From positions 384,001 through 448,000 of the forward strand of contig CAVQJC010000020.1 in the NCBI GenBank assembly GCA_963712745.1: 64,000 bases of DNA, in the 5' to 3' direction. Position numbers and translations under genes: made by a program. The notes beneath the pieces were generated by a model. The model worked only from the letters and a program-made list of their open reading frames with translations, did no database searches and was not told the origin of the DNA. Position 1 is the first letter of the stretch. Each line of letters opens with the position of its first letter. Below, in pieces: positions 4,464 to 23,531 of the stretch. The stretch is from an uncultured Chloroflexia bacterium. Its GTDB lineage: Bacteria > Chloroflexota > Limnocylindria > Limnocylindrales > CSP1-4.

Positions 4464-4564
4464 CGCTGCCTACCCCGTCCTCTGTCGTCGGAGGGGCGCC
4501 CCGTTGCTGCGGAGCGCCCCTCCGAACGGTGGTTCACCCGAAAACGGATGGGTGCCGCTGTCGG

Positions 4565-5644: not shown

Positions 5645-5965
5645 GTCCTTTCTGCGCCCGTAGGAGGCGCGGTACGTCAGGTGTAGGGCCAATCTCTCTG
5701 GGCCCACCCCGATGAAGCTCTCTCTGCTCCCTCAGATCGTCTCCTCAGGATCGGTCAGTGCCTGCTGCCCTCCTCTCGCTGCGCCAGCGCACGGGCGCGC
5801 GGCATCGCCTCCACGGTGTGGTGAGCGTCGATGTGGCGGGTCGAGCGTTCGCGCGCGATGCAGCGGCCACCTCCTCTGGCGGCCCGATGCTCGTGTCCGC
5901 GATGTCCCACAGCGCCTCCTCGCTGATGCTCCCGTCCGGCAGCCCCCGCTGCCGGCATCCCGCGT

Positions 5966-6955: not shown

Positions 6956-6967
6956 CGATGGCTCCTT

Positions 6968-7762
6968 CTAGAACGCCGCGAGGTTGCCGCCATCGACCAC
7001 CAGCACGTGCCCGGTCGTCCAGGCGGCGGCATCGGAGGCGAGGAAGATGACCGGGCCGACGATGTCCTCGACGTCCGCCAGCCGACCCAGCGGCAGCCGG
7101 CTCAGGAAGTACGCCTCCGTCTCCGGTTTGGACTCCATCAACTCGAGGACCAGCGGGGTCTTGATCTGTGCCGGGGCGACCGCGTTGACGCGGATGCCGT
7201 GGTGTGCCCACTCGACGGCGAGGTCGCGGGTGAGGGCGATGACGCCGCCCTTGCTGGCGGAGTAGTTGGCGTTGCCCGTGGTGAGCCCGACCAGCGCCGC
7301 CACCGAGGCGATGTTCACGATGACCCCTCCCGACCCACGGTCGATCATGTGCCTGCCGACCTCCTGGTCGAACAGCCACACCCCTCGCAGATTGATGTCG
7401 ATGACGCGGTCCCATTGCTCGATGCGCATGTCCTCGGCGGAGTTGCGATCCCCCACGCCGGCGTTGGCCACGAGGATGTCGATCTTGCCAAGCGCATCGA
7501 TCGCCTGCTCGACGGCCGAGCGGACCTGCTGCTGGTCGCTGACGTCGCAAGTCAGGCTGACCGCTCTCCCTCCCGCCGCGTTGAGGTCGTCGGCGGCACG
7601 GCCGGCGCTCTCGGCATCGATATCCACTACCGCCACGTCGGCACCGAACTGGGCGAGGCCCTCCGCTATCCCCCGGCCCAGACCCTGGCCAGCGCCGGTG
7701 ACCAGCGCGGAGCGCCCGGCGAGGCTGAAGACGTCTCGCAGGTCCCTGATCTGCATGGGCAT
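6968..7762 (-). CDS. SDR-family oxidoreductase
   Basis: TGAGQGLG, NAG, YSASK. Confidence 0.93.
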   Translation of the reverse strand: MPMQIRDLRDVFSLAGRSALVTGAGQGLGRGIAEGLAQFGADVAVVDIDAESAGRAADDLNAAGGRAVSLTCDVSDQQQVRSAVEQAIDALGKIDILVANAGVGDRNSAEDMRIEQWDRVIDINLRGVWLFDQEVGRHMIDRGSGGVIVNIASVAALVGLTTGNANYSASKGGVIALTRDLAVEWAHHGIRVNAVAPAQIKTPLVLELMESKPETEAYFLSRLPLGRLADVEDIVGPVIFLASDAAAWTTGHVLVVDGGNLAAF

Positions 7763-7767
7763 GGCTC

Positions 7768-8883
7768 CTACTGCTGCACCAGACCCGGCGCGGCGGGGGT
7801 CTCGGGGAGCTCCCAGTCGTCGTGTGGCGTGACCAGGATCTTGATCTCATCCTTGTCCTCAACCAGGGCCTCGAACCCTCGGGTGATGGCATCATCGAGG
7901 TGGATGTGTCGGGTGACGAGCGGCCTGACATCGATGCGGCCATCGACGAGGTACTTCACGGCCGTGCGGAAGTCCTCGTCATAGGTATGGGAGACGGAGC
8001 CGACGATCTGCTTCTCTTTCTGAAACAGGTCGAGGGCGTCGACCACGTACGGTTCCCGTGGCACGCTGACCACGACGAGCCGGCCGCCGGGGGCGGTCGA
8101 GCGGAGTCCGGCCGCGAACGAGACGGCGCTGGCCCCCGTCTCCAGGACGACGTCGGCGCCCCTCCCCCCGGTCAGGTCGAGGAGCGCGTCGGGCCAGCCA
8201 GCATCGTCGCCGTCGAACGCCTCTGTGGCCCCCAGGTCGCGTGCGACCCGCAGGCGGCGCGGGTTGAGTTCGGCGACGTAGACATCCGAGGCACCGGCGA
8301 TACGTGCCACGGCCAGGCAGGCCAACCCGATCGGGCCCGCCCCGATGACCAGGACACGGTGTCCGGGGCGGATCCCGCCACGGCGGGCGGCATGCACGCC
8401 TACTGCTACCGGTTCGGCAAGAGCCGCGATGTCCTCGGGGAAGCCCGCCGGCAGCGGGAAAGCGTTGTGGGCCGGCATGTTCACGAAGCGGGCGAAAGCG
8501 CCATCGCTCGACATGCCGATAGCACCCGTCTGGGGACACAGCGAGAAGTAGTGGCGCTGGCAGTAATGGCACGCCCCGCAGGCAACGACGACCTCGCTGG
8601 CCACCGGCTGGCCGATCCGCAGTCCGTCGGCGCCCTCTCCGAGCCGAGCGATACGCCCAGAGAACTCGTGGCCCAGCACCAGCGGGGTCTTGCGCCCGGT
8701 CAGGGGATGAGGTTCGTCCACCGGAAAGATCCCGAGTCCGAACTGCCAGCCCTCGATGTCGGTCCCGCAGACCCCGCACCATGAGACCTCGATGGTGACT
8801 TCGCCCGGCCCAGGCGGCGGCGGCTCTGGCCAGTCCGTCTCGAGGCGGATGTCGTGCTGCCCGTAGAGCACGACGGCCTTCAT
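7768..8883 (-). CDS. Zn-dependent alcohol/polyol dehydrogenase (butanediol/sorbitol DH-like)
   Basis: MKAVVLYG start, CGVCGTD, GHEFSG, CGACHYC, GAGPIG. Confidence 0.92.
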   Translation of the reverse strand: MKAVVLYGQHDIRLETDWPEPPPPGPGEVTIEVSWCGVCGTDIEGWQFGLGIFPVDEPHPLTGRKTPLVLGHEFSGRIARLGEGADGLRIGQPVASEVVVACGACHYCQRHYFSLCPQTGAIGMSSDGAFARFVNMPAHNAFPLPAGFPEDIAALAEPVAVGVHAARRGGIRPGHRVLVIGAGPIGLACLAVARIAGASDVYVAELNPRRLRVARDLGATEAFDGDDAGWPDALLDLTGGRGADVVLETGASAVSFAAGLRSTAPGGRLVVVSVPREPYVVDALDLFQKEKQIVGSVSHTYDEDFRTAVKYLVDGRIDVRPLVTRHIHLDDAITRGFEALVEDKDEIKILVTPHDDWELPETPAAPGLVQQ

Positions 8884-9929
8884 CTGGCCGGTCCGCCCGC
8901 CCGAGCCTCGCGAATCATCTTGCGTACCCCGTTCCAGCCGTCGATGAAGGCGTCGCGAAAGTGCTGGACCGGGCCGAACCCCTCGAAGTCCTCGATCGGC
9001 AGCGCTGCCGGGTCGAGCGCCTGGCGCATCTCGGGGAAGGCCTCGGTCAACGTCCTGATGACGGCTGGGTCGACCGGGTCGGTGACCGTCACCTGCGCGG
9101 GCAGATCGTGTTCGACGAGCTCGGCCGCGGTGGACCAGTTGATGGTCGCGGCCATGCCCCCGCCGATGAGCCCACTGAAGTCGAGCTCGATGCGGGCACC
9201 ACCGTAGAGCAGCGTGACCGGGTACTCGCGCTCGCGCACGACCTCGTAGCAGGCGCGGGACACGATGACCCCGGCCAGCTCCATGGCCTCGACCGGCACG
9301 TCCAGCCCGTCGCGCGCGGCGAGCGACTTCAGGTGGTCGCCGAGGATGCCGGTGATGGGGCTCATGAAGAAGGGCGGACGCACGCCCGTCTTGTCGGTCA
9401 CCGCCAGCCAGCGCTCGCAGGTCTCGATGACCTGGGCGGTGCTGAAGACCTCGGTGACGATGACCTGGCTGCCCTCGGCCACGATGGTCTCCATGGCCTC
9501 GTAGCCGGGCACGGTGGCCGGGATCTTGGGCGTGGCGTTGGGGGCGATGGTGCGTGCCGCACGGGCCTCTTCGAGGATGACCGCGCCGTCGGTGTCGGAC
9601 TCGGGCGCACCCTGGATGGAGACGAAGCCCTCCCGGCCCTCGGTCTGCTCGTAGAGCGGGCCGAAGCGCTCGCAGATGCGGCCCACGAGCCGGCGCTGGA
9701 CGAGATCGGCCACGACCTCGTCGTCGTCGGACTCGGGCAGGCACGCGCGCACGATGGGCAGCACCTCACTGGGTGCGCGCTTGACGAGGTTGCCGCCGTA
9801 GCCGGGGTTGGTGGTGCAGCCCATGGCCCCGTGGGCGAGGGCCAGGTCCATCTCCTCGATGGTCGGGTTGTTGATCCAGAAGCGGCCGCCGGTCTCGGCC
9901 CGGACCCGCTCGAAGTAGTGCTCGCTCAT
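8880..9929 (-). CDS. Transaldolase/FSA-family protein with variant active site
   Basis: TTNP and Schiff-base Lys (PKIPAT) conserved. Confidence 0.85.
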   Translation of the reverse strand: MSEHYFERVRAETGGRFWINNPTIEEMDLALAHGAMGCTTNPGYGGNLVKRAPSEVLPIVRACLPESDDDEVVADLVQRRLVGRICERFGPLYEQTEGREGFVSIQGAPESDTDGAVILEEARAARTIAPNATPKIPATVPGYEAMETIVAEGSQVIVTEVFSTAQVIETCERWLAVTDKTGVRPPFFMSPITGILGDHLKSLAARDGLDVPVEAMELAGVIVSRACYEVVREREYPVTLLYGGARIELDFSGLIGGGMAATINWSTAAELVEHDLPAQVTVTDPVDPAVIRTLTEAFPEMRQALDPAALPIEDFEGFGPVQHFRDAFIDGWNGVRKMIREARAGGPAR

Positions 9930-10960
9930 GCGTCCTCCTCGTTGACCGCGACCAGCACCTTGGGTCGCTCGCGGCCGCGCTCCCTCGACCTCGCCAGCGC
10001 CGCCTCCACCTCGTCGAAGGGGTAGACGCGGTCGATGAGCAGCTCCGGCTTGATCTCGCCCGATTCGATGGCGGCCAGTCCGTGGGGGTACTGGCCGGGT
10101 CCGTTGAGCACGCCCTTGATGGTGATGTCGCGGACTGCGATGGCGGCTGCGTCTACCTCCACGAGCGTGGTAGGAACGCCCAGCAGTGCCACCCGCCCCC
10201 CTGGCGCCACGTGGGCCAGGGACGCCTGCACGCCGTCAGGCGTCCCGGCAGCCTCGAGGACCACGTCGAACTCCTCCACGGCAGCCTTGGTGCCGGCTAT
10301 CCAGGGGATAGCCCCGGCAGCCTCCACCGTGGGTGCCCGAACCTCGTTGCGCAGCAGCACGTGCGTACGGATACCGCGCGCCGAGAGGATCATCGCGCCG
10401 GCCAGGCCCAGCGTTGCCGAGCCCACGATGAGCACGTCCTCACCCGGCTGCGGATCGGTACGCCGGATGCCCTCGAGCGTGGTCACCATCGGCTCCACCA
10501 GCGCGGCATCGCGCGTGGTCACGTCGTCGGGGATGGGTAGCAGGTACCTGCTCGGCACCGCCACCACCGTGGCCAGGGCCCCGTCGAGCCCGTTGCGCAC
10601 CCCTATCTCGAGGCGCTGGACGCAGCGCACCACCAGGCCGTTCGTACACAGCTCACAGTCGGCACGGCCACAATCGATGATGGGATCGAGGATGACGCGC
10701 GTACCTGCGGCCAGCTCTTCGGTCGGCTGCAGCAGGGTGCCGGACCACTCGTGGCCCGGCTGCAGGGGGTACATCGCGAAGCCCTGGTGCAGGTAGGGCA
10801 TGCTGCCGTCGAAGAGGTCCAGGTCAGTGCCGCACAGACCGACGTACGACGGTGCCGCCAGCACGTATCCGGGCGGGACCGCAGGTAGCGGCTTGTGGAC
10901 GATCTCGAAACGGTCGGGCCCGGTGATGTGAACAGCGCGGACTGACGAGGGCAGGCTCAT
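9926..10960 (-). CDS. Zn-dependent alcohol dehydrogenase family protein
   Basis: GLCGTD, GHEWSG, Cys cluster; start MSLPSS overlaps the upstream stop. Confidence 0.9.
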   Translation of the reverse strand: MSLPSSVRAVHITGPDRFEIVHKPLPAVPPGYVLAAPSYVGLCGTDLDLFDGSMPYLHQGFAMYPLQPGHEWSGTLLQPTEELAAGTRVILDPIIDCGRADCELCTNGLVVRCVQRLEIGVRNGLDGALATVVAVPSRYLLPIPDDVTTRDAALVEPMVTTLEGIRRTDPQPGEDVLIVGSATLGLAGAMILSARGIRTHVLLRNEVRAPTVEAAGAIPWIAGTKAAVEEFDVVLEAAGTPDGVQASLAHVAPGGRVALLGVPTTLVEVDAAAIAVRDITIKGVLNGPGQYPHGLAAIESGEIKPELLIDRVYPFDEVEAALARSRERGRERPKVLVAVNEEDA

Positions 10961-11742
10961 CGCACCGTGTGACCCCCATCGACCACGAGCACGTGGCCGT
11001 TGACCAGCGAGCCGGCCTCGGAGGCCAGGTAGATGGCCGCACCCACTACGTCCTCCGGCGTGCCCATGCGCCCGAGCGGGATGTTGCCGAGGAAGAACTC
11101 CGCCAGCGCCGGGTCCTCCTCCATCTTCCGGGCGATGAGCGCCGTCTTCACGTGCGTGGGCGCGATGGCATTGACGCGGATGCCGAACCGCGCCCACTCG
11201 ATGGCGAGCGTGCGGGTGAGCGCGTTGAGCGCGCCCTTGGTGGCGGCGTAGTTGGCATTGCCGGTGGTGATGCCCACGATGCTGGTGATCGACGAGGTGT
11301 TGATGATCGAACCCTCGATGCCGCGCTCGATCATGTGCCGGCCCACGGCCTGGTCGAAGTACCAGGCGCCCGAGAGGTTGATGTCCAGCACGCGCTGCCA
11401 CTGCTCGAGCGTCATCTCCTCTGCCGGAGCGCGGTCACCGATGCCGGCGTTGCTCAAGAGGACGTGGATGTCGCCGAGCTCGTCGATGGTGGCCTGCACG
11501 GCAGCCTGCACCTGCGCGTGATCGGCCACATCACAGCCGACCGCGATGGCCCGGCCACCGGCGGCCATGATCCCGTCGGCGACTTCCTGCGCCGCACCCT
11601 GGTCGATGTCCACGACCGAGACCGCGGCACCGTACTGGGCGAATCCTTCGCACACCGCGAGGCCCAGTCCGGAGCCGCCACCGGTGACGAGCGCGGTCTT
11701 GCCCGCGAGGGAGAAGAAGTCGGTCAGGTCACGGGTCTTCAC
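10957..11742 (-). CDS. SDR-family oxidoreductase (paralog of 6968-7762)
   Basis: TGGGSGLG, NAG, YAATK; shares GxTTGNANY with the first SDR. Confidence 0.92.
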   Translation of the reverse strand: MKTRDLTDFFSLAGKTALVTGGGSGLGLAVCEGFAQYGAAVSVVDIDQGAAQEVADGIMAAGGRAIAVGCDVADHAQVQAAVQATIDELGDIHVLLSNAGIGDRAPAEEMTLEQWQRVLDINLSGAWYFDQAVGRHMIERGIEGSIINTSSITSIVGITTGNANYAATKGALNALTRTLAIEWARFGIRVNAIAPTHVKTALIARKMEEDPALAEFFLGNIPLGRMGTPEDVVGAAIYLASEAGSLVNGHVLVVDGGHTVR

Positions 11743-12451
11743 TGGACGTCCCCTCTGTGGCGCGCTCGCCGGCGAGCATCTCCTCTCGCGCGCGCATCTT
11801 GTCCACGATGTCCATGTGCGGACCGGTGATGTGCTGGTCGACCGCGAGCGACACCTGGTACGGGTCCCCGGTCTGGAGCACGGCGTAGAGATCACGGTGT
11901 CGACGCACCACGATCTCCGGCGTGGGTCGATAGAGGTCGCTGTAGAAGAGCACGCGACGGCTATGGACCTGGATGGCGGCCAGGTGCTCGATGAGCAGGG
12001 CATGACCGGACAGCTCGGAGAGCGCGGTGTGGAAATCCATGTCAGCCGCGACCATGCCCGGTACGTCGCCTGCGGCCGCGGCGCGCTCGATGGCCTCGAG
12101 CCGGCGGCCGAGCATGGCCATGGCGCCCTCGTCGAGGTGGCCCCGCTCCGACGCCAGCTGAGCGGCAAACGATTCGAGCGCTGCCCGCAGCGTGTAGATC
12201 TCTTCCGCGTCCCGTGCCGTGACCGTGGAGACCATGGCGCCCTTGTGCGTGCTGCGCGTGACCAGGCCGGTGCCGGCCAACTCCCGCAGCGCCTCTCGCA
12301 CGGTGCCCCGGGAGGTCCCCAGCTCCTCGGACAGACCGGCTTCGGTGAGCGGCCGCCCGGGTGCGTAGTCGCCCCGGATGATGCCCTCGCGGATGTGCGC
12401 CACCACCGCGTCCGCGAGGCTGGGCGGCCGGTCGAGCGTCTTCTGCTCCAT
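11729..12451 (-). CDS. GntR-family transcriptional regulator
   Basis: LTEAGLSEELGTSRGTVREAL HTH plus FCD domain. Confidence 0.92.
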   Translation of the reverse strand: MEQKTLDRPPSLADAVVAHIREGIIRGDYAPGRPLTEAGLSEELGTSRGTVREALRELAGTGLVTRSTHKGAMVSTVTARDAEEIYTLRAALESFAAQLASERGHLDEGAMAMLGRRLEAIERAAAAGDVPGMVAADMDFHTALSELSGHALLIEHLAAIQVHSRRVLFYSDLYRPTPEIVVRRHRDLYAVLQTGDPYQVSLAVDQHITGPHMDIVDKMRAREEMLAGERATEGTSSEDP

Positions 12452-12482
12452 GCCTTGCGCTCCCCTCGCTGGATGTCCGCAG

Positions 12483-12510
12483 TGGACTGGTTGTTGGATT
12501 GTACTACAAT
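12483..12510 (+). promoter_or_regulatory. Sigma70-type promoter overlapped by a palindromic operator
   Basis: TGGACT-N16-TACAAT; perfect palindrome ATTGTA-C-TACAAT at 12498-12510 between divergent genes. Confidence 0.65.
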
Positions 12511-12578
12511 GAGACAGCCCGGTACCAGAGGCCCCGCCGACCAGCGAGCCGCGACCGAGCCACGGAGGACAGCAGGCC

Positions 12579-13340
12579 ATGGCGAAGCTGAGGTTCTTTG
12601 GCACCGCGGGCTACGAGCTCGTGACAGCCGACGGCGTACGGGTGGTGATGGATCCCTTCATGGACTCGAACCCGGCCTGCCCCTTGAGCTGGTCGGACCT
12701 CGAGGCGGTCGACCTGGTGCTGGTCACGCACAACGCCTACGACCACGTGGGTGAGGCGGCGGAGATCCTCAAGCGCGACAAGTGCCCGGTCATCTGCGCC
12801 AAGGACGTGGCCCACAGCCTGACCACCGTCCATGGGGTCGATCCCGACCAGATCCGCGTGACCATCTGGGGCATCCCCATGGTGGTCGCGGGTGTCCCGG
12901 TACATCCGATCGAGAGCCACCACTGGTCGTTCTCGGTGACCCCATCGGGTGAGCTCCTGTCCGGGCCGGCCATGGGCTTCATCGTCGATGCCGGGCCGGG
13001 CGTACGCCTCTACCACCAGGGCGACTCGGCCATCTCCTACGACTTCCGCCTGTGGGGCGAGCTGTACCGGCCCACCCACGGGCTGATGGTGGTGGCGCTG
13101 CCGGAGGACTCGCTGCCGCACTTCGAGGTCTATCGCGGTGGCGAGGTCACCGTGCAGGAGGCAGTCATGGCCAGCCAGTGGCTCGGTCTCAAGCACGTCA
13201 TCGCCAGCCACTACCAGTGGCCTTCACACCCGGACGTCCAGCGGTTCGTCGAGCTCATGGCCGCCCACACCGCTGCCGGCGAGTGGCAGCCCACGGTCGT
13301 AGCACCGGAGCCCGGCCAGACCATCGAGCTCGAGCCCTAG
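12579..13340 (+). CDS. Metallo-beta-lactamase-fold hydrolase (UlaG/UPF0173-like)
   Basis: VMDPF, THNAYDH, YHQGDS, ASHY. Confidence 0.85.
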   Translation: MAKLRFFGTAGYELVTADGVRVVMDPFMDSNPACPLSWSDLEAVDLVLVTHNAYDHVGEAAEILKRDKCPVICAKDVAHSLTTVHGVDPDQIRVTIWGIPMVVAGVPVHPIESHHWSFSVTPSGELLSGPAMGFIVDAGPGVRLYHQGDSAISYDFRLWGELYRPTHGLMVVALPEDSLPHFEVYRGGEVTVQEAVMASQWLGLKHVIASHYQWPSHPDVQRFVELMAAHTAAGEWQPTVVAPEPGQTIELEP

Positions 13341-13349
13341 GAGAACGCC

Positions 13350-14441
13350 ATGACCGAAGCCGTCGCCAGACACCGCATCACCGCGGACGAGAACTGCGAG
13401 GCCGTCGCAGCCTTCGAGCGCGACACGCTCACGCCGCTGAGCGCGAGCCCCGGCCTCGACGCCGACCAGCTGAAGCAGATGTACCGGCGCATGCGCCTCA
13501 TCCGGGAGTTCGACACCCAGGTGAAGGAGCTCTGGAAGCAGGACTTCATCTACGGCCTGGCCCACTCCTACGTGTGCGCCGAGGCCATCGCCGTGGGCGC
13601 ATGCACGGCTCTGCGCAAGGGCGACTACATCACCAGCACCCACCGGGGCCACGGCCACACCATCGCCAAGGGCGGCGATCCGCGGCGGATGATGGCCGAG
13701 CTGATGGGTCGCGCTGATGGCTACAACAAGGGCAAGGGCGGTTCGATGCACATCGCCGCGGTGGACATGGGCATGCTCGGCGCCACCGGCATCGTGGGCT
13801 CGGCCATGCCCATCGCGGTCGGCTCAGCGCTGACGGCCAAGACGCTGGGCCAGGACTTCGTGACGGTCTGCTTCCACGGTGACGGCGCCACCAACCAGGG
13901 CGTGTGGCACGAGTCGATCAACCTGGCCGCGGCCTGGAACCTGCCCGTCATCTTCCTCTGCGAGAACAACCAGTGGGCCATCTCGATGCCCTACGAGCAG
14001 GCCGTGCGCAACCCCTCGGTGGCCGACCGCGCCATCGGCTACGGCATCCCGGGGGTCACCGTCGACGGCTTCAACGCCATCGCCGTCCACGATGCGGTCG
14101 CGGAGGCGGCTGAACGCGCCCGGAACGGCGGCGGGCCCACGCTCATCGAGGCCCGCTTCTACCGCTACATCGGGCACTTCGTGGCCGACGATGAGGCCTA
14201 TCGCGATCTCGAGTGCAACGAGCGATGGGAGCAGTTCGATCCCATCACCCGCCTGGGCGCGTACCTGGTCGAGTCCGGCGTGGCGGACCAAGCCTGGCTG
14301 GCCGAGGCCGCGGCGGAGGCGTCTGCGACCGTAGAGGACGCCATCGAGTTCGCCAAGGCAGCGCCAGAGCCGGCCCTAGACACGCTCTACGACGGCCTCT
14401 ACTCCGACGAGTTCATGGAGCAGCAGAGGATCGGGCGATGA
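13350..14441 (+). CDS. TPP-dependent dehydrogenase E1 alpha subunit (AcoA/PdhA-like)
   Basis: STHRGHGH, GKGGSMH, GDGA...ENN TPP motif. Confidence 0.93.
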   Translation: MTEAVARHRITADENCEAVAAFERDTLTPLSASPGLDADQLKQMYRRMRLIREFDTQVKELWKQDFIYGLAHSYVCAEAIAVGACTALRKGDYITSTHRGHGHTIAKGGDPRRMMAELMGRADGYNKGKGGSMHIAAVDMGMLGATGIVGSAMPIAVGSALTAKTLGQDFVTVCFHGDGATNQGVWHESINLAAAWNLPVIFLCENNQWAISMPYEQAVRNPSVADRAIGYGIPGVTVDGFNAIAVHDAVAEAAERARNGGGPTLIEARFYRYIGHFVADDEAYRDLECNERWEQFDPITRLGAYLVESGVADQAWLAEAAAEASATVEDAIEFAKAAPEPALDTLYDGLYSDEFMEQQRIGR

Positions 14442-15511
14442 CCGTGGCACAGACTCCCGCGGGCGAGGTCCAGACCCGCCGCATGAACGTCAAGCGCGCC
14501 ATAAACGAGACCCTGCGCGAGGAGATGCAGCGCGACCCCACCGTCATCATCCTGGGCTGTGACGTGGGGGTGCGTGGCAACCCCTTCGGCGTGACCAAGG
14601 GCCTGTACGACGAGTTCGGGGCCGGGCGCGTGCTGGATACGCCTATCAGCGAGGCCGCCATCGTGGGCTCCTCGCTGGGTGCCGCGGCCACCGGCCTGCG
14701 GCCCATCGCGGAGATCCTCTTCAGCGACTGGATCACCATCGGCATGGACCAGCTGGTCAACCAGATCGCCAAGATCCGCTACATGTTCGGCGGTGCCATC
14801 AGCGTGCCGCTGGTCATCCGCGCCCCGGTCGGCGCCGGTGGCGGCCAGGCGGCCCAGCACAGCCAGTCGTTCGAGAACTGGTTCAGCGCGGTCCCGGGTC
14901 TGCAGATCGTGATGCCGTCCACCCCGGCCGACGTCAAGGGCCTGCTGCGCACCGCCATCCGCAGCGACGACCCGGTGCTCTTCTTCGAGCACAAGCGCGG
15001 CTACGAGATCAAGGGCCAGGTCCCCGTCGAGGAATACACCATCCCCTTCGGCCTGGCCGACGTCGTTCGTGAAGGCAACGATGTGACCGTGGTAGCCATG
15101 TCGATCATGCGTCACAAGGCCATGGCCGCAGCCGAGGCGCTGGCCGCCGAGGGTATCGACTGCGAGGTCATCGACCCGCGCACCATCTTCCCCTTCGACT
15201 ACGACACCGTTCTGGCCTCGCTCGAGAAGACGGGCCGGCTGGTGGTGGTCCACGAGGCCAACCGCCGCAGCAACATCGGCGGCGAGATCGTCTCGCAGGT
15301 GGTCGAACGTGGCTTCAGCCTGCTCAAGGCACCGCCGCGCATCGTGGCCGGGCTCGACGTACCCATGCCCTACAACCGCGCGCTGGAGGCGCTCGTCATC
15401 CCCGACGAGGCCCGCATCAAGGACACCATCGCTCGCGGTCGTGGGCCGCTCGAGCCAGAGGAGGTCGAGAACCCGTGGCCACGTTCTTCCCGCTGCCCAA
15501 GCTGGGCATGA
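14438..15511 (+). CDS. E1 beta subunit (AcoB/PdhB-like); C-terminal end uncertain
   Basis: DTPISEAAI, AQHSQS, FFEHK, EVIDPRT. Confidence 0.92.
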   Translation: MTVAQTPAGEVQTRRMNVKRAINETLREEMQRDPTVIILGCDVGVRGNPFGVTKGLYDEFGAGRVLDTPISEAAIVGSSLGAAATGLRPIAEILFSDWITIGMDQLVNQIAKIRYMFGGAISVPLVIRAPVGAGGGQAAQHSQSFENWFSAVPGLQIVMPSTPADVKGLLRTAIRSDDPVLFFEHKRGYEIKGQVPVEEYTIPFGLADVVREGNDVTVVAMSIMRHKAMAAAEALAAEGIDCEVIDPRTIFPFDYDTVLASLEKTGRLVVVHEANRRSNIGGEIVSQVVERGFSLLKAPPRIVAGLDVPMPYNRALEALVIPDEARIKDTIARGRGPLEPEEVENPWPRSSRCPSWA

Positions 15512-15753
15512 ACCAGGAGGAAGGCGAGATCGTCTCCTGGCTCGTGGCCGAAGGCGACCCTGTCAGCGAGGGCCAGCCGATCGTCGAGATCGAGACCGAC
15601 AAGGCCACCGTGGAGCTGGAGTCGACCGCCTCCGGCGTGCTCGCGCGGATCGTCCACGGCGAGGGCGACATCGTGCCCATCAACGGCGTGATCGCGGTCA
15701 TCCTCGCCCCCGGCGAGGCCATGCCCGACGAGATCCCCGAGACCATCGCCTGA
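15475..15753 (+). CDS. Stand-alone lipoyl-domain protein
   Basis: LPKLG...EIETDKATVE, 92 aa then stop. Confidence 0.85.
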   Translation: MATFFPLPKLGMNQEEGEIVSWLVAEGDPVSEGQPIVEIETDKATVELESTASGVLARIVHGEGDIVPINGVIAVILAPGEAMPDEIPETIA

Positions 15754-15771
15754 GCAATCGAAGGGAACCTC

Positions 15772-17941
15772 ATGACCGCCGCAGCCGCCACCGCACCCGA
15801 TCTCACCCGTGTCGAGCTGACCGAGCGAGCGCCTGGCGGACACGCCCAGGCGAACGCTGGGCCTGGCCGTCCTCAGCATCCAGACCATCCGCCGCTTCGA
15901 GAAGTGGCTGCTCGACAACGCCAACCTCGTCCACGGGCCGCTGCACTCGAGCATCGGCCAGGAGGCGACGGCCACGGGGGCCGCGCTGGCCCTGCGGAGT
16001 AGCGACTGGCTGACCTCCACGCATCGCGCCCATCACGACGTGGTGGCCAAGCTACTGCTGTCGGCCACGGCGGCCGACTTCGACCCGCTCACGGCGGGCG
16101 TGGTGACCGAGGCCATGGCCGACCCGGTCCAGCGCACCATGGCCGAGATCATGGGCCTTGAGCAGGGCCTGTGCCACGGGCGCGGCGGCTCGATGCACCT
16201 GTGGGACCGAGAAGGCGGCGTCATGACCACGGCCATCGTGGGCGGCGGCATCCCGCCCGCCGGCGGCTATGCCCTGGCCTCCAAGCTGCGCGCCACGGGT
16301 GACGTCGGCGTGGCCTCGTTCGGCGACGGCGCCACCCAGATCGGTGCCTTCCACGAAGCGGCCGCGCTGGCGCGCGCCTGGGAACTCCCGCTCATCCTGC
16401 TGCTCGAGAACAACCACTACTCCGTGGCCACCACGGTCCGTGAGTCAGCCGGCTTCACACGCCTTGCGACGCGCGCGCGCGGCTACGACATGCCCGCCAT
16501 CGTGGTCGACGGCATGGACCCCATCGCCACCATGGAGGCGATGGCGCAGGCTCGCGCGCATGCGGTCGAGCACGGGCCCATCCTGGTCGAGGCCATCTGC
16601 TACCGCTACTACCACCAGAACGGTCCCCTCCCCGGCTCGGCATTCAAGTACCGCAGCAAGGACGAGGAACGCGAGTGGAAGGGCCGGGACCCCGCGGTCG
16701 CGTTCCCGCGCCGGCTCATCGAGGCCGGCCTGCTCAGCGCCGAGCAGGTCCAGCACGTACAGGGCCTGGCCAACGCGCTCGTCGCCCGTTGCGTAGCCGC
16801 CCTCACCGTGGAGACCGAGGAAGGCCCGGCCATCCCGCAGGAGCTGTACCCACCACTCGAGGACACCTCTCGAGGCATGCTCGGGCCGGGCCTGCCGGAG
16901 CTACCGGCCGAACGGCTCGATGAGACTCCCCTCGTCGATGGCGAGCCCATCACCTATACCGAGGCCATCCAGGGTGTCATCGGCCGCTCGGTCGAACGCG
17001 ACCCGGAGGCCATCTTCATGGGCGAGGAGGTCGGGCACCTCGGTGGTGGCGTCATGGGCCTGACCAAGTCGGCCGTGGCCTTGCGACCGGAGCAAGTGAT
17101 CTCCACGCCCATCTGCGAGAACGGCTTCGCCGGCGCGGCGCTGGGCGCGGCGCTGGCGGGCATGCACCCGATCATCGAGTTCATGTACCCCGACTTCACC
17201 CTCGAGGCCACCGACCAGCTCTTCAACCACATCGCCAAGAGCCGCTACATGTACGGCGGGGATCACGAGGTGCCGATCATCGCGCGCACCCAGATCAGCC
17301 GGGGCCGCGGCTATGGGCCGCAGCACTCGTGCGACCCGGCGGCCCTGTTCACCTCGTACCCCGGCTGGCGGGTCGTCGCGCCGACCACGCCGGCCGACTA
17401 CGTCGGCTGCTGGAACGCGGCCATGCTCAGCCGAGATCCGGTGCTCGTCATCGACGACCACCGCCTGGCCAAGACCAGCGGCGTGCTCCCGGCCGCGGGC
17501 TTCGACCACGTGGTAGAGATCGGCCGGGCGCGGCTCGTGCGACCGGGACGGGATGTGACGGTGCTGGCCTGGGGCTACGCGGCCTTGCGCGTGGCGGAAG
17601 TCGTGGCGGCACTGGCAGAACGCGGCATCGAGGTCGAGGTCATCGATCCACGCTGGCTTGACGCTGCCAGCTTCGATCGCGCGACCGTGCTCGAGTCGGT
17701 GGGCCGAACCGGTGCGCTGGTCATCGCAGAGGATGCTCAGAGGACGCTGTCGATGGGCGCCCGCATCCTCGACTACCTGCAGCCGAACCTGCATTCGCTG
17801 CTGCGCACTGCGCCGCTGCGAGTGACCGGACAGGATGTGTACTCGCCGGTGAGCAAGCCGCTGGAGACCGTCGTGCACCTCCAGGACGCCGACATCGAAG
17901 CGGCCATCGTGGCTGCCGCCGAGACGAAGGAGACCACGTGA
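15772..17941 (+). CDS. Fused E1 alpha/beta TPP-dependent dehydrogenase (frameshift near 15850)
   Basis: GPLHSSIGQEA, GRGGSMH, GDGA...ENN, then STPICENGF and GPQHS beta domain. Confidence 0.9.
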
Positions 17942-18177
17942 GCACCCCTATCAAGTTGCCGAACCTCGGCGCCGAGACCGACGAAGCCCGCGTCAGCAGC
18001 TGGCTCAAGGCCGTCGGCGATACCGTCATGGAGGGCGAGGTCATCGCCGAGATCGAGACCGAGAAGGCCAACGTCGACCTCGAAGCCCCCGCCAGCGGCC
18101 GCCTCACAGAGATCCTCGTGCAGGCCGGATCCGCGGCCAAGGTCGGCACGGTGCTGGCGACACTCGAGGAGTCGTAG
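17938..18177 (+). CDS. Stand-alone lipoyl-domain protein
   Basis: LPNLG...EIETEKANVD, 79 aa; GTGA-coupled to the E1. Confidence 0.88.
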   Translation: MSTPIKLPNLGAETDEARVSSWLKAVGDTVMEGEVIAEIETEKANVDLEAPASGRLTEILVQAGSAAKVGTVLATLEES

Positions 18178-18179
18178 CG

Positions 18180-18320
18180 CCGTCAGCCGCTCGGGCTGGC
18201 CGTCAGCCGCTCGGGCTGGCCGTCAGCCGCTCGGGCTGGCCACACGGTCGGGCTGGCCGTCAGCCGCTCGGGCTGGCCACACGGTCGGGCTGGCCACAGG
18301 GTCGGGCTGGCCACACGGTC
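18180..18320. repeat. Mixed 20/17-bp tandem repeat array
   Basis: Units CCGTCAGCCGCTCGGGCTGG and CCACACGGTCGGGCTGG sharing core TCGGGCTGGCC. Confidence 0.9.
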
Positions 18321-18347
18321 GCGTCGAGGCCCATCGAGCGCAGACAG

Positions 18348-18509
18348 TTCGCAATGATCGAACACGACCCAGCCGTCTCGCGGGTTCACGGCAGGCGCAT
18401 GAGTCATTCCATGCGCCACGCGCGTGGAATATGCCCAAGTGTGCGTCGCGGGACCCCGAGCGGCGCGTTCGGCCGGCCAGGGTGATCGCTTCGCTTCGAT
18501 CATTGCGAA
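18348..18509. repeat. 162-bp imperfect palindrome (MITE/REPIN-like)
   Basis: Perfect 15-bp terminal IR TTCGCAATGATCGAA/TTCGATCATTGCGAA; centre ATTCCATGCGC-CAC-GCGCGTGGAAT. Confidence 0.75.
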
Positions 18510-18929
18510 GAACCGGACGCCACACGACACGGCGGGTTCGGACCTGGCGGAACACGGTCGCTCAGGAACAGACGTGTTGGGCCCGGGCCGCCAAGGAGCG
18601 GACGCCACGGGCGAGGCCTTTCGGCAACGAGCCGCTCGACAAGGGTGCCTCCCCGGTGGGTCGGGGGCGGGCACTTCCACACGGTCGTTCAACGCGAGGC
18701 GGCCCGTTGCAGGGTTACGGGCGAGATGCGGACGCCAACGTGCCCGACACCGGTGCCACCGGCCACGGAACCAGGCGCGATGCCCGTGGTGCAGGGTGGA
18801 GGTGCGGGCGATCCAGCACACCACGACCGGGATCGCGACCCAGCAGAACGAGATCGAGCCCATCCAGCATGATCTGTTCAACGACAGTGTGAAGTGGGGT
18901 TACTCAGACGACAGGAGCGAACCTGGCAG

Positions 18930-19078
18930 CCAGCACGGCGCCCAACCAGCGCCCGTCGCTCCAGCACGGCGCCCAACCAGCGCCCGTCGCTCCAGCACGG
19001 CGCCCAACCAGCGCCCGTCGCTCCAGCACGGCGCCCAACCAGCGCCCGTCGCTCCAGCACGGCGCCCAACCAGCGCCC
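18930..19078. repeat. 31-bp tandem repeat, about 4.8 copies
   Basis: Unit CCAGCACGGCGCCCAACCAGCGCCCGTCGCT, identical copies. Confidence 0.95.
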
Positions 19079-19176
19079 ACGTGGCGCCCCGCCGGCCCCG
19101 TATCCCCGGCTCGCCACCGCGCTATCGCGCTTTCACCCCTGACGGCCCCGAGGCCTGCTCGCTATCGCCCGCCGCG

Positions 19177-20010
19177 CTACCGCCCCCGCAAACCCCGCTC
19201 GCCGAGGAAGAGGTGCTGCACCAGCAGGAAGAACAGCACCGCCGGCAGCGTGAGCATCACCGCTCCCGCCATCAGCAGTGGCCAGTCTGTGGGATCGAGC
19301 TGCTGCAGCTGGCGTAGCCCCAGGGGCAAGGTGTAGAGGCCCTGGTCGCGCAGGTACAGCAGCGGGCTGATGAAGTCGCTCCAGTAGAGGATGAAGGTCA
19401 GCACCGCCACAGCGATGGTCGAAGGCACCGCATTGGGCAGCGCGATACGTCGCCACACCGTGAAGACCCCGGCCCCATCGAGGTGGGCCATCTCGAAGAT
19501 GGCCGGCTGCGCCCGCCGGAAGGTCCAGTAGTAGATGAGCACGAACAGCGGGCTCGAGCCGGCCAGCGATGGCACCACCAGCGCCAGCAGCGAGTCGGTC
19601 AGGCCGATCCAGTTGAAGAGCAGGAAACGGGTCAGCCAAAGGGCCGTGATGGGCACCATCAGCAGCGCCACCGAGAGCACCACCAGCACGGCCCTCGAGC
19701 GCCGCTCGAGCAGAGCCATGGCGAACCCGCCCATGGATGCGGTGATGACGGTGAGCGGCACGGCCAGCGCCACCACCGCCAGCGAATTGAGCAGGTAGCG
19801 CCCAAAAGGCAGCAGCTCGAAGACGGCCGCGTAGTTGTCCGCTGAGGGCGAGGCCGGCAGCCACTCGATGGTCCGCGGCGGTGCCAGGCCCGGCTCGCGC
19901 AGCGAGGCGGTGATCATCCACAGCAGCGGCAGCAGAAAGAGCCCGGCCACCAACAGCGGCACCACATGGCCGGTCACCGCCCCCCTGCCCCGGCCGCGTC
20001 GCTCAGACAT
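19177..20010 (-). CDS. Carbohydrate ABC transporter permease (MalG-like)
   Basis: EMAHLDGA EAA-like loop, WSDFISPL, TLPLGL. Confidence 0.92.
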   Translation of the reverse strand: MSERRGRGRGAVTGHVVPLLVAGLFLLPLLWMITASLREPGLAPPRTIEWLPASPSADNYAAVFELLPFGRYLLNSLAVVALAVPLTVITASMGGFAMALLERRSRAVLVVLSVALLMVPITALWLTRFLLFNWIGLTDSLLALVVPSLAGSSPLFVLIYYWTFRRAQPAIFEMAHLDGAGVFTVWRRIALPNAVPSTIAVAVLTFILYWSDFISPLLYLRDQGLYTLPLGLRQLQQLDPTDWPLLMAGAVMLTLPAVLFFLLVQHLFLGERGLRGR

Positions 20011-20887
20011 CGGCCGTGTACCCGCGACGACGGAAGAGCAGGTAGATGCCGCCGATGATGGCCGCCGACAGCATGAACGTCACCAACATCAGCGCAGAGC
20101 CTGCCCCGAATCGGAAGCGGTCGAAGGCCTCCTCGTAGGTCAGCAGCGGCAGGAACAAGGTCGAGTAGTAGGGATCGCCACCGGTCATCACGAACGAGGG
20201 CGTGAAGGTCCACTGGAACGTAAGGATGACGTCGCGGAAGGTCAGCAACGCCAGCCACGGCAGCAGCAGCGGCAGCGTCAGGTAGCGGAACGAGGCCCAG
20301 CGTCCGGCACCGTCGACGGCTCCCGCATCGAAGTACTCGCGGGGCAGCCCGCGCAGGGCCGCCAGCAGGACCACGAAGCCCTCGCCGATCTGGAACAGCG
20401 ACATGACCACGAAGGGGTAACGAGCGGTCTCGGCGTCGGCCAACCAGCCTGGCTGCGGCAGACCCAGCGCCCCGAGCGCGACGTTAACGGGCCCGAACAG
20501 AGGATTGAAGATCCACAACCAGATGAGCGCGAAGGCGACGTCGGGAATGACCGTGGGCAGGTACGCCGCCGTGCGATAGCCAGAGGCGCCTCGACGCGGC
20601 CGCTGTAGCAGCAGGGCCAGGCCGAGCGCCCCGAGGATGCGCAGCGGCACCGCCAGCAGGATGAAGACGAGCGAGTTACTGATGGCCGTGGCCACCAGCG
20701 GGTCGGCCGCGAGCAGGCGGAAGTTGGCGAAGCCGACGAACACCGGCGGAGAGAGCGCGTCGTAGGACGTGAACGCGAGCACGGCGGACATCAACGCCGG
20801 CAGCCCCACCAGCAGCAGCGTGCCCACGAGATACGGCAGCAGCAGCAGCCACAGGCCGGCGCGCCAGGACATCAGCGAGCGCTTCAT
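20003..20887 (-). CDS. Carbohydrate ABC transporter permease (MalF-like)
   Basis: FVGFANF, DAGAVDGA, VMTGGDP. Confidence 0.92.
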   Translation of the reverse strand: MKRSLMSWRAGLWLLLLPYLVGTLLLVGLPALMSAVLAFTSYDALSPPVFVGFANFRLLAADPLVATAISNSLVFILLAVPLRILGALGLALLLQRPRRGASGYRTAAYLPTVIPDVAFALIWLWIFNPLFGPVNVALGALGLPQPGWLADAETARYPFVVMSLFQIGEGFVVLLAALRGLPREYFDAGAVDGAGRWASFRYLTLPLLLPWLALLTFRDVILTFQWTFTPSFVMTGGDPYYSTLFLPLLTYEEAFDRFRFGAGSALMLVTFMLSAAIIGGIYLLFRRRGYTADV

Positions 20888-20930
20888 CGGACGCGGACCC
20901 CGACCTCGATCACCACCGGGGCAGTGTGCC

Positions 20931-22223
20931 CTAGCCTTCCTCGCCCGCGAAGAATGGCAGCGTGCGCGTGATCATGGCGTCGATGGCCTCGTCCACCGTG
21001 GCCTGTCCGTAGAACGCCCGCTCCAGCTCGTCGCCGGTGAGCTCTTCGACGTCGACCCAGCTAGCCATCACCGGCACCGTCCGCAGCGTATCGACCGTCT
21101 CGAGCCAGACCGCGGAGTTGGCCGGCGCCGCGTTCGGGTCCAGGAAGGCCTCGGACGAGGCGACCTCGATGAGCGAGGGTACCGTTCGGCCCGACGCCGC
21201 CACGATGGCCTGCCCCTGCGGCGAGTTGGCGAACTCGATGAAGGCCCAGGCCGCGTCCTTGTCCTCGGTCGCAGCGGCCATGCAGTAGGCGTCCGAGTGC
21301 AGGATGCCGGCCCGCTCGATCCCGACCGGCAGCGCCGCCACGTCCCAGGCGAGATCGTCGACGCCGCGCGCAGTAGGGGTTCCTCGCCGGCTGTTGAGGA
21401 ACATCGCCGTGCGCCCGTTGAGGAAGCGGCTCTCGGAGTCCTCGGCTGCCTCGGTCAGCGCGTCGGGGGCCACGCCGTACTCGGTCTGCAGGGCCACGAA
21501 CCATGCGACGGCTTCTCGCGCCGGTCGCGAGTCGAGCGCCAGGCGGATGGGCCGCAGGCCCGACTCGAGCACCACCAGCTCGCCACCGTTCTGCCAGACG
21601 AAAGGAGCCAGCCGGAAGATCGAGGGCTCGATGCCCAGGCCGTATTGATCCGTGACCCCATCCCCATCGAGATCCTGGGTCAGCGCTTGGGCCGTGGCCA
21701 GGAACTCCTCCCAGGTCCAGTCATCGGACGGGTAGGCCAGCCCGGCCGCGTCGAAGAGGTCGCGGTTGTAGTAAACGACGAGGCTGCTGATGTTCTGGGG
21801 GATGCACATCAGCTGGCCGCGCCAGCGGAAGGGGTCGGTCGCGACCGGGAAGAAGTCGCTGTCACTGATGACGTCACTGCGTCGCAGGTACGGCGCCAGT
21901 GGTTCGAGCACTCCCCTGGCCGCGAACGGCGCGTAGCGGCGGTAGTTGATGAGCACCACGTCCGCCGGGTCGCCCGCCGCGAAGTCCGCGCCCAGCCGCT
22001 GCCGATAGTCCGATGCGCTGGGGATGTGGATGAGCTCGACCTCGATCTCCGGTTGCGACTCCTCGAAGGCGGCCACCAGCGACTTGTAGGCAGCCAGCTC
22101 GGCCGGATCGCCGAAGACCATGAAGGACACGCGGCGGTCCTGGGCCACCGACCCGCTCACGAGCACGGCCAAGCCGAGCACGACGACGGCCAGGGAGCGG
22201 GCGAGCAGCGGGAGACGAACCAT
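20931..22223 (-). CDS. Carbohydrate ABC transporter substrate-binding protein
   Basis: Signal peptide; VVYYNRDLFDAAGL, WTWEEF, FLNGRTAM. Confidence 0.92.
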   Translation of the reverse strand: MVRLPLLARSLAVVVLGLAVLVSGSVAQDRRVSFMVFGDPAELAAYKSLVAAFEESQPEIEVELIHIPSASDYRQRLGADFAAGDPADVVLINYRRYAPFAARGVLEPLAPYLRRSDVISDSDFFPVATDPFRWRGQLMCIPQNISSLVVYYNRDLFDAAGLAYPSDDWTWEEFLATAQALTQDLDGDGVTDQYGLGIEPSIFRLAPFVWQNGGELVVLESGLRPIRLALDSRPAREAVAWFVALQTEYGVAPDALTEAAEDSESRFLNGRTAMFLNSRRGTPTARGVDDLAWDVAALPVGIERAGILHSDAYCMAAATEDKDAAWAFIEFANSPQGQAIVAASGRTVPSLIEVASSEAFLDPNAAPANSAVWLETVDTLRTVPVMASWVDVEELTGDELERAFYGQATVDEAIDAMITRTLPFFAGEEG

Positions 22224-22245
22224 GCGGCCCGATAGGATAGCCGCC

Positions 22246-22665
22246 ATGTCCGACACCGGCTCCGACCTCTCCGGCTCCGACCTCTCCGGCTCCGACCCCT
22301 CCGGCCAGGCGCGTTCATCGTGGGCGCCCGTGCTCATCGGTGCCGGCTTCGTCTATGCCGCGCTGGGGGCGCTCCTCGTCGTCGTCTTCTTCCTCGGCGG
22401 CATCCAGTCCTCGCTCTTCCCCACCGGCTGGCTCTTCCCCGCCGTCCTGCTCGTGACTGGCGCGCTGATGGCTGCCCGCCGCCGCTTCGACATCGTGGCC
22501 ACGCTGTGGGGCAGCCTGACGCTGGCGGTGTTCCTGCTGGGCGTGCTCGTCTACGTCAACGCGCTGGACCTCGGGCTCGACGATGCGGCCGCCTTCGACG
22601 CCACCCTCATCGTGGCCGGCTTCGGTCTTCTCGTGCTCGTGCTGCGGCCGGCGTTCCGCGACTGA
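22246..22665 (+). CDS. Hypothetical 4-TM membrane protein
   Basis: Four hydrophobic segments; N-terminal GSDLS repeats from a 15-bp DNA repeat. Confidence 0.75.
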   Translation: MSDTGSDLSGSDLSGSDPSGQARSSWAPVLIGAGFVYAALGALLVVVFFLGGIQSSLFPTGWLFPAVLLVTGALMAARRRFDIVATLWGSLTLAVFLLGVLVYVNALDLGLDDAAAFDATLIVAGFGLLVLVLRPAFRD

Positions 22666-22843: not shown

Positions 22844-23494
22844 ATGCTGACGCCGGACACCCCACGACGTCGCCTTCGCGGGCTCGCTGCGGCCACGCTG
22901 GCCGCCACCATGCTTGCCCCCGCGAGTGCTGCCATGGCCATCGATGCCGGATCTGCCGAGATGGAGACCGGCGGGGCCGACGCGTCCGCGAGCGCCGCCA
23001 CGGCCGATGAGCTGCGCTCCCTGGTCGATGACCTGAGCCTGGCCAACGATGCCCTCCTGGCTGACAAGCACACGTTGCAGGTCGAGATCGAGGCACTCGC
23101 CGTCGAGCGCGACCGGCTGCTCGAATCGCTGACCCGCTTCGACGAGCTCTACGATCCGCTCGAGTCGGACCGCCAGCTGCTCTTCGAGCTGCGCAAGGGC
23201 CTGCCCGAGACACGCCCCGAGGCCGAGGCGCAGCTGGCGCGCATCCGCTCGCTGGCGCTCTCATCCGATCCCGCCAGGCTGGGCCAACTCGTCGACCGCA
23301 TCGACGACACCGCGCCCGCCTTCCTCGACTGGCGCTTCGGCGAGTTCGAGGACACCGCGCAGTTCAGTGCGGCCTACATCGACATGGGGGCCAATGCCTT
23401 CGACTCCTCCATGGAGGACTTCCGCTCCGAGGCGCTGATGTCGGTCGCCAACCGGCTCGACGGGCTCCTCACCATCCTCGACCGGGTCCGCTAG
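22844..23494 (+). CDS. Secreted coiled-coil hypothetical protein
   Basis: RRR plus hydrophobic signal peptide; heptad-like acidic helix; GAGAGG RBS. Confidence 0.8.
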   Translation: MLTPDTPRRRLRGLAAATLAATMLAPASAAMAIDAGSAEMETGGADASASAATADELRSLVDDLSLANDALLADKHTLQVEIEALAVERDRLLESLTRFDELYDPLESDRQLLFELRKGLPETRPEAEAQLARIRSLALSSDPARLGQLVDRIDDTAPAFLDWRFGEFEDTAQFSAAYIDMGANAFDSSMEDFRSEALMSVANRLDGLLTILDRVR

Positions 23495-23531
23495 CGCGGC
23501 CTGCCCCTCCCGTTACCCCACAAGGAGAACG

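Follow-up and report, generated by a model that had tools for sequence, protein, structure and literature searches.

The locus described here raises the question of how an enzyme system of the 2-oxo acid dehydrogenase type could work when its E2 component seems to be reduced to free lipoyl domains. In textbook 2-oxo acid dehydrogenases, the E2 core carries the lipoyl arm, docks both the thiamine pyrophosphate (TPP)-dependent E1 and the dihydrolipoyl dehydrogenase (E3), and passes the acyl group to coenzyme A (CoA). We analysed a stretch of 64,000 nucleotides (hereafter the window) from an uncultured Chloroflexia bacterium (contig CAVQJC010000020.1 of GCA_963712745.1; G000:C20:384001-448000 in our numbering), which belongs to a Chloroflexota assembly of 20 contigs that is 84.6% complete. 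A first inspection of the letters alone (the sequence-only reading) had described in it an operon of a hydrolase, two E1 systems and two small lipoyl proteins that ends in non-coding repeats, and this gene order is borne out by the open reading frames (ORFs) and Pfam. Indeed, the forward strand carries in succession a metallo-beta-lactamase (MBL)-fold metal hydrolase of a UPF0173-like subfamily (12579-13340; Lactamase_B_2, 59 bits), a TPP-binding E1 alpha subunit (13350-14441; E1_dh, 298 bits), an E1 beta subunit (14438-15511; Transket_pyr, 147 bits, and Transketolase_C, 131 bits), a free E2-type lipoyl protein of 92 aa with a GTG start, named here Lip1 (15475-15753; Biotin_lipoyl, 70 bits), a fused E1 alpha-beta (15772-17941), a second free E2-type lipoyl protein of 79 aa, Lip2 (17938-18177; Biotin_lipoyl, 73 bits), and a repeat-rich spacer. 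The E2-less six-gene state is conserved and under purifying selection, and our comparisons suggest that the system is a disaggregated, originally CoA-dependent E2, the catalytic half of which would have been lost in the window lineage.

Scanning one genome per species, we retrieved 11 close loci (L005-L015) with fused E1s 77-90% identical, and the six genes stand in the same order in 10 of them (L005-L012, L014 and L015), which indicates that the arrangement is not due to chance. L013 has five of the six genes, with no match for Lip2, and a metagenome contig (L065) repeats the gene order up to its end; together, these 12 loci form the window-type set. When the window genes were compared with those of close relatives (7-10 pairs per gene), the ratio of non-synonymous to synonymous substitution rates (dN/dS) ranged from 0.09 to 0.18 for the hydrolase, 0.11 to 0.23 for E1alpha, 0.10 to 0.21 for E1beta, 0.13 to 0.20 for the fused E1, 0.27 to 0.50 for Lip1 and 0.10 to 0.46 for Lip2.

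These comparisons support the view that Lip1 and Lip2 are real free proteins that travel with their E1s as modules. Both match PF00364 over the entire profile, and the sequence-only reading was right that each keeps its lipoyl lysine and ends cleanly, since K43 is invariant (11 of 11 aligned rows for Lip1 and 12 of 12 for Lip2) and the stops follow after 92 and 79 aa. In addition, the acidic and proline-rich tail of Lip1 is conserved, with P79, E81, P84, D85 and P88 nearly invariant. Lip2 has 97 short homologues in a large protein collection, mostly of 79 aa, and in one close locus (L010, 12097-13665) an insert of ~1.5 kb separates it from the fused E1. The idea that the lipoyl ORFs are E2s truncated by an assembly deletion was ruled out: the same stops recur in 10-11 independent assemblies, and the gene that follows Lip1 begins within 18 bases of it. 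A read-derived piece of run X4 (18002-18215) crosses the Lip2 stop. Note that the comparison with H-protein, also made in the sequence-only reading, holds for the existence of the carriers as small free proteins and fails for the fold: Lip1 and Lip2 are assigned to PF00364 and not to PF01597, the fold of the free lipoyl carriers GcvH and LbpA, and only a few of the short Lip2 homologues bear a precomputed PF01597 match.

Both E1s bear the E1_dh, Transket_pyr and Transketolase_C domains, and in both sequences we read the TPP motif GDG...NN and the active-site histidine of the YRY..H loop; H265, Y261 and R262 are invariant across 22 homologues of the fused E1. The best sequence matches in the PDB are E1 subunits of pyruvate dehydrogenase (PDH) and branched-chain 2-oxo acid dehydrogenase (BCKDH), and the available sequence models do not separate an acetoin-type from a pyruvate-type E1 (E1alpha scores 340 bits against TIGR03182, below the cut-off of 394). 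In the ORF list, the fused E1 starts at the GTG at 16040 and counts 633 aa, so placed that E1_dh is matched only from profile position 64. However, the frame stays open over 15821-17941 and its translation restores the missing N-terminal part of the alpha moiety, nine relatives open at an in-frame ATG, full-length members among its roughly 1700 homologues measure 720-744 aa, and the DNA alignment shows an extra C at ~15826 of the window without counterpart in any of five aligned relatives. With the insertion, the ATG at 15772 no longer shares the frame of the gene, and gene callers start at 16040 for that reason. From the open frame, the starts of the relatives and the extra C, we read the real gene as 15772-17941 with a one-base frameshift in the assembly. 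A 183-nt piece of an RNA run is identical to 17137-17319; it may be DNA carry-over, and neither expression nor habitat is deduced from it.

This insertion, together with a second E1alpha/E1beta/Lip module in a related locus (L060, see below), in which the catalytic ORF is truncated to 144 aa, might be taken to mean that the E1 and lipoyl genes are a decaying remnant, non-functional since the loss of the catalytic gene and on the way to becoming pseudogenes. We consider this extremely improbable: dN/dS lies at 0.09-0.23 for the four enzyme genes and at or below 0.50 for both carriers, and none of the five aligned relatives has the insertion. Since other genes in the same assembly also show broken frames, we attribute the frameshift to a probable sequencing error sooner than to loss of the gene.

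The absence of an acyltransferase and of a dihydrolipoamide dehydrogenase after the lipoyl ORFs, as claimed earlier, was confirmed, for the acyltransferase both by tblastn at E<=10 and by Pfam. The tblastn search used eight E2 queries against 14 sequences (the window, the 12 window-type loci and L054, a locus from another genus of the same family), and matches to the E2 catalytic domain were confined to L054, with none in the window or the 12 window-type loci. No E3 was found in the cluster, no cluster protein has a Pfam match to the E1/E3-docking domain (E3_binding), and neither PF00198 nor a carrier-protein domain occurs among the scanned cluster ORFs, small acyl carrier protein (ACP) genes not having been searched for separately. 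One E2 alignment crosses the Lip2 stop (17950-18303) and runs into tandem repeats, and we take it as a low-complexity match. An E2 remnant hidden in the repeat spacer was also considered and ruled out, no catalytic match being present at E<=10. The catalytic core, the docking domain and the cis-encoded E3 of 2-oxo acid dehydrogenases are missing from the cluster. What the window shares with PDH/BCKDH-type complexes is the E1 alpha/beta domains and a lipoyl domain of E2 type that keeps its lysine, and an E3 that may serve these carriers is encoded elsewhere in the genome; the window differs from them in that its E2 is dismantled, with free lipoyl proteins of 79 and 92 aa and no docking domain or core in the cluster, and in that two E1/carrier pairs share one operon in a sugar-catabolism setting.

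Elsewhere in the genome, four PF00198 matches occur, all in full-length E2 frames or frame series (one of them frameshifted), as well as one TIGR01350 match over the cut-off for dihydrolipoyl dehydrogenase (C14:54865-56271) and one PF21948 match for lipoate ligase. As a separate observation, the same genome holds a second twin-E1 cluster (L063, G000:C11:158000-177000, ~7358-13283 therein), composed of E1alpha, E1beta, E1alpha, E1beta and then an E2, the lipoyl, E3-binding and catalytic parts of which lie in three frames.

The likely origin of the E2-less state emerges from the relatives. In L054 (genome G245), the same six genes are followed by a 237-aa ORF that carries PF00198 only, with a weak match to NCBIfam NF008907 (an E1o fused to a succinyltransferase). 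Two paralogous modules, L060 (G349) and L061 (G245), are composed of a fused E1 63-65% identical to that of the window, a 79-aa lipoyl protein and a catalytic-only ORF of ~240 aa. In all three loci the lipoyl stop (that of Lip2 in L054) overlaps the ATG of the PF00198-only ORF, of 237-240 aa, and no E3_binding domain was found in these split modules. Over the three, identity to the window proteins is 63-68% for the fused E1 and 53-70% for the 79-aa lipoyl protein; the difference is the catalytic-only gene, kept there and absent in the window lineage. Farther out in the fused-E1 family, at 35-45% identity, an ordinary full-length E2 mostly comes next (80 metagenome loci). As L054 and the two paralogous modules keep the catalytic gene, a split, CoA-dependent E2 would be the original design: a whole E2 would have split into two separate proteins, a carrier and a catalytic one, with the E1/E3-binding domain missing, and then, in the window lineage, only the carrier would have been left. 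Another genome from the genus of the window, G474, carries on one contig an E1ab-Lip pair without a catalytic gene and, on another, a pair of Lip and catalytic-only E2 (L155, G474:C14, 9794-10714) with no E1 match within ~10 kb, which shows that these components can be encoded, and probably function, separately. Separately, we observed in Roseovarius (L016, 11914-13242) a 442-aa protein after E1alpha and E1beta that has two lipoyl domains, a weak E3-binding match and no Pfam match to PF00198.

The split modules also bear on whether the carriers are acylated at all. The E1 fold is common to transketolase and DXS, to which weak NCBIfam matches occur, and a transaldolase-like gene lies in the cluster, so that the E1s might be non-oxidative enzymes, transketolase- or carboligase-like, with the lipoyl proteins as redox partners or regulators and not as acyl carriers. 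Yet each E1 retains its own lipoyl protein across several contexts, and in relatives the E2 catalytic gene sits right after the carrier, a position that makes sense only if the carrier is acylated; we thus regard non-oxidative E1s as very improbable.

How might such a system turn over? The reading that we prefer, tentatively and at somewhat less than an even chance, is that of a disaggregated E1/lipoyl system in a sugar/polyol catabolic cluster, unloaded in trans by E2 cores. Two TPP-dependent E1s, one split into alpha and beta and one fused, would each cleave an intermediate, either a 2-oxo acid or one of the alpha-hydroxyketone/ketose type, and reductively acylate their own small diffusible lipoyl protein, Lip1 or Lip2; a single dihydrolipoyl dehydrogenase encoded elsewhere would re-oxidise the carriers; a full-length E2 core, also encoded elsewhere, would transfer the acyl groups to CoA; and the MBL hydrolase would act on a sugar-derived substrate or product. 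Of this picture, the data show the gene content and its conservation, the relatives with a split E2 and the purifying selection, whereas carrier acylation, the E3 and E2 in trans, the part played by the hydrolase and the substrate class are what we infer. Acyl discharge to CoA by E2 cores in trans is in our view the most likely mode of unloading and is ranked above release by the hydrolase, for which a lactone or ester would be a more likely target than the acyl-lipoyl group.

Several points weigh against this preferred reading. Acceptance of Lip1 and Lip2 by a foreign E2 core is itself putative. A search of four window-type genomes (G000, G621, G546 and G632, assemblies 83-86% complete) turned up no stand-alone E2 catalytic gene; the only matches were E2s 32-38% identical, in frames of 384-576 aa, and G632 had no match at all. 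In every window-type locus, as in the sister genus, the hydrolase gene comes first in the operon and ends 9 bases short of E1alpha, a placement in favour of a function within the E1 pathway. In addition, two other E2-less modules of fused E1 and Lip lie beside hydrolases, which would fit hydrolytic release: in L067, the order is a short-chain dehydrogenase/reductase (SDR), Lip, a GFO/MocA oxidoreductase, Amidohydro_2, the fused E1, an SDR, a vicinal oxygen chelate (VOC) gene and an ADC-like gene, and in L148 a GDSL hydrolase and a ROK protein precede the fused E1 and Lip. It should be noticed, however, that the numbers are small and that hydrolases are common in sugar clusters.

The same observations would fit an extended form of the alternative put forward in the sequence-only reading, a CoA-independent oxidative C-C cleavage: once the E2 catalytic domain was lost, the two E1s would load the free lipoyl proteins with sugar-derived acyl groups, which would be freed as acids or lactones through MBL hydrolysis, L067 and L148 using other hydrolases; we judge it rather unlikely. 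Of the original proposal, the conserved E2-less state with free carriers stands, whereas a CoA-independent design is at odds with the split E2 of L054, L060 and L061. Its author had also expected that homologous clusters would not routinely include an E2 or lack the hydrolase: the window-type clusters do neither, whereas the nearest out-groups include an E2 (L054, L060 and L061) or gave no match to the hydrolase (L060 and L061).

A narrower form, in which the MBL protein would be an acyl-dihydrolipoyl thioesterase that frees the acid from Lip1 and Lip2 and replaces the lost E2 catalytic domain, depends on the hydrolase itself, and we hold it to be unlikely, more so than CoA-independent cleavage in general. 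The tight linkage of the MBL gene to the E1 and Lip genes in all window-type loci and L054, the lack of an E2 catalytic gene both in the cluster and, as a stand-alone gene, in the four genomes, and the hydrolases beside the E2-less modules of L067 and L148 all speak in its favour. A precedent is the AcoC model NF011457, against the N-terminus of which Lip1 and Lip2 score best (positions 7-81 and 3-79 of 372, respectively) and in which positions 94-369 match an alpha/beta-hydrolase protein, so that a lipoyl domain is paired with a hydrolase fold. Against it stands first the family of the enzyme, for which the sequence-only reading had pointed to the thioesterases of the MBL fold, such as glyoxalase II. 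Motif 2 of the hydrolase is HxAxDH (H51, A53, D55 and H56) in 10 of 10 aligned members, D25, H115, D149 and H211 being invariant in the same alignment of 10 sequences, and it scores 25 bits against TIGR03413 (glyoxalase II), far below the cut-off of 200.8. In a Foldseek search with the predicted model (predicted local distance difference test, pLDDT, 90.9), the nearest folds are UPF0173 proteins (TM_1162, 7e3v/7e3w and Igni18; template-modelling scores of 0.80-0.82, query-normalised), followed by the UlaG lactonase and NAPE-PLD, with no glyoxalase II among the 28 matches listed. The PDB sequence matches are likewise TM_1162, 7e3v and Igni18, and the ESM Atlas returned generic MBL clusters only. 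UPF0173 proteins (TM_1162 and Igni18) and UlaG are thus the best sequence and fold matches; they differ from the hydrolase in that identity is 22-25% and that TM_1162 has HGHGDH in place of HxAxDH, and NF001911 (UPF0173) is matched at 103 bits, below its cut-off of 144. Igni18 has been proposed as a possible archetype with several functions, so that the family points to no defined physiological role. A complex prediction of the hydrolase with Lip1 (score 0.00, mark 0.32) counts neither way.

The company kept by the hydrolase also speaks against the thioesterase. In a sample of 401 Chloroflexota genomes, relatives at 36-45% identity, of the same MBL subfamily and with the HxAxDH motif, occur in seven places, none of which has a free lipoyl protein beside them. 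In L048, L051 and L052, they lie among an alcohol dehydrogenase (ADH), an ApbA/PanE-type reductase, an FAH-family hydrolase and a ~655-aa protein (L052 by BLAST only) that resembles D-apionate lactonase (NF049900, 310 bits, below the cut-off of 750), with a DUF1537-type kinase near these loci, and in L047 the relative follows E1alpha, E1beta and a full-length E2. D-apionate-lactonase-like ORFs of ~655-707 aa, so identified from the NF049900 match below its cut-off and from Atlas clusters, are located beside the hydrolase at 6554-8518 in L048, 6633-8606 in L051, 4769-6793 in L052 and 7367-9490 in L054, where the gene precedes the six genes; no homologue was found in the genome of the window. 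Conversely, no match to the MBL hydrolase was found near L060 and L061, which have a catalytic gene without it, while the hydrolase and the stand-alone E2 catalytic gene share one operon in L054. A clean either/or, with the MBL protein in place of the catalytic gene, was therefore ruled out, L054 having both. Given the seven loci without a free lipoyl protein and the coexistence in L054, the hydrolase is not tied to lipoyl carriers and travels instead with sugar-acid and apionate-lactonase-like genes. These sugar-acid neighbours and the coexistence in L054 lower the thioesterase reading without removing it.

What the system may act on is suggested by its surroundings. Upstream, on the reverse strand (6041-11742), Pfam and NCBIfam identify a two-domain VOC/glyoxalase-fold protein, an SDR, a Zn-ADH, a transaldolase-like protein, a second Zn-ADH and a second SDR, and the transaldolase-like, ADH and SDR genes are syntenic across L005-L015. 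Downstream and convergent (19177-22337, reverse strand), an ATP-binding cassette (ABC) sugar uptake system of two permeases and an SBP_bac_1 binding protein of CUT1 type (Pfam) is syntenic in the close loci, and an FGGY kinase is encoded at the window edge. This context, with its CUT1-type binding protein, four dehydrogenases, transaldolase-like gene and FGGY kinase, points to a sugar, a polyol or a sugar acid as substrate. A two-step route, which is a guess, would explain the two E1/carrier pairs: cleavage of a ketose-like 3-oxo sugar acid by one E1, and decarboxylation of the remaining 2-oxo acid by the other.

The sugar setting also allows a release that needs no transferase. A hydroxyl group can attack a thioester within the same molecule, and a polyhydroxy-acyl group on the carrier could in this way be attacked by its own hydroxyl and leave as a lactone, which the MBL hydrolase would then open. 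The ABC sugar transporter, the four dehydrogenases and the transaldolase-like gene would suit such a self-lactonisation, as would the UlaG lactonase among the nearest folds of the hydrolase and the lactonase-type neighbours of related modules (ApnL-like and Amidohydro_2 in L054, Amidohydro_2 in L067). We nevertheless find it improbable: the C2 glycolyl unit expected from ketose cleavage cannot lactonise, and the E2 catalytic gene is kept in L054. In the available passages of the ApnO paper, one transketolase route and three oxidative routes are given for D-apiose, and the words lipoyl, thiamine and dehydrogenase complex are absent.

Compared with known systems, the preferred reading of a disaggregated E1/lipoyl system combines features that are otherwise found apart. 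The E1 alpha/beta of acetoin dehydrogenase cleaves an alpha-hydroxyketone onto a lipoyl group, and the acetoin system (AcoA, AcoB, AcoC and AcoL) shares with the window the best lipoyl match, that of the AcoC model, and the pairing of lipoyl and hydrolase folds. However, the window has neither an AcoC-type second domain nor AcoL, its hydrolase is separate and of MBL fold, and acetoin as substrate is unlikely because of the sugar transporter and the polyol dehydrogenases. The corynebacterial OdhA reportedly borrows lipoyl domains in trans, its catalytic domain being fused to E1 and the lipoyl domains sitting on another E2, and it illustrates that lipoyl and E2 catalytic domains can cooperate from different polypeptides; in the window, by comparison, the cluster has no catalytic domain and each lipoyl domain forms a protein of its own. 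In the E1-type enzymes of QncN/L/M and SclQ1-4, a C2 unit of a ketose phosphate is transferred onto a lipoyl group (PMC6335953). QncN/QncL/QncM, which form a glycolicacyl unit, resemble the window in acting on a ketose with a PDH/transketolase-like E1 and a lipoyl domain, and differ in being biosynthetic and in having an acyltransferase domain and an ACP, neither of which was seen in the cluster, where the setting is catabolic. In the open literature, most subscription journals and supplements not being covered, neither a pairing of E1s with free lipoyl proteins of E2 type nor catalytic-only E2 genes were found to be described.

The remaining features of the neighbourhood complete this picture of the locus. 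A GntR/FCD-family regulator (11729-12421, reverse strand; Pfam GntR, 61 bits, and FCD, 76 bits) is divergent from the operon and is also kept beside the MBL gene in the close loci, and a promoter-like site, by consensus match only, precedes the operon at 12483-12510; no terminator was found after Lip2 in a consensus scan. The non-coding spacer (18178-19176) contains tandem units of 17-20 nt (18168-18330) and of 31 nt in ~5 copies (18899-19084). It does not appear to be a known RNA, as Rfam at E<=0.1 gave no match over 12000-19400, spacer included, and it has no counterpart in L005 and L009, in which the permease gene comes directly after Lip2. The genome also has, at G000:C11:200159-201181, a paralogue 54% identical to the transaldolase-like gene, with an Amidohydro_2 match ~4 kb off (C11:204941-205588). 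At 2022-5707 of the window (reverse strand), short overlapping ORFs carry pieces of a BPD_transp_2 permease and an ABC_tran ATPase, which may be either frameshift-broken genes or poor assembly. On the other side, genes for a peptide-type ABC binding protein and permeases come after that of a 767-aa protein with BNR/sialidase-like repeats (23439-25742).

Altogether, three stages of E2 can be seen within this family, namely whole in distant relatives, split in sister lineages and reduced to the carrier alone in the window lineage, and the series amounts to a natural experiment on the share of E2 that an E1/lipoyl system requires and on whether acyl-lipoyl can be discharged when no transferase is devoted to it. 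The locus also suggests that sugars or sugar acids may be degraded with the help of TPP/lipoyl chemistry. If the CoA-free alternative were true, it would mean a lipoyl-dependent oxidation of ketoses or keto-sugar acids, with carriers working like the H protein of glycine cleavage, and other lineages, such as those of L067 and L148, would have reached the same solution with other hydrolases.

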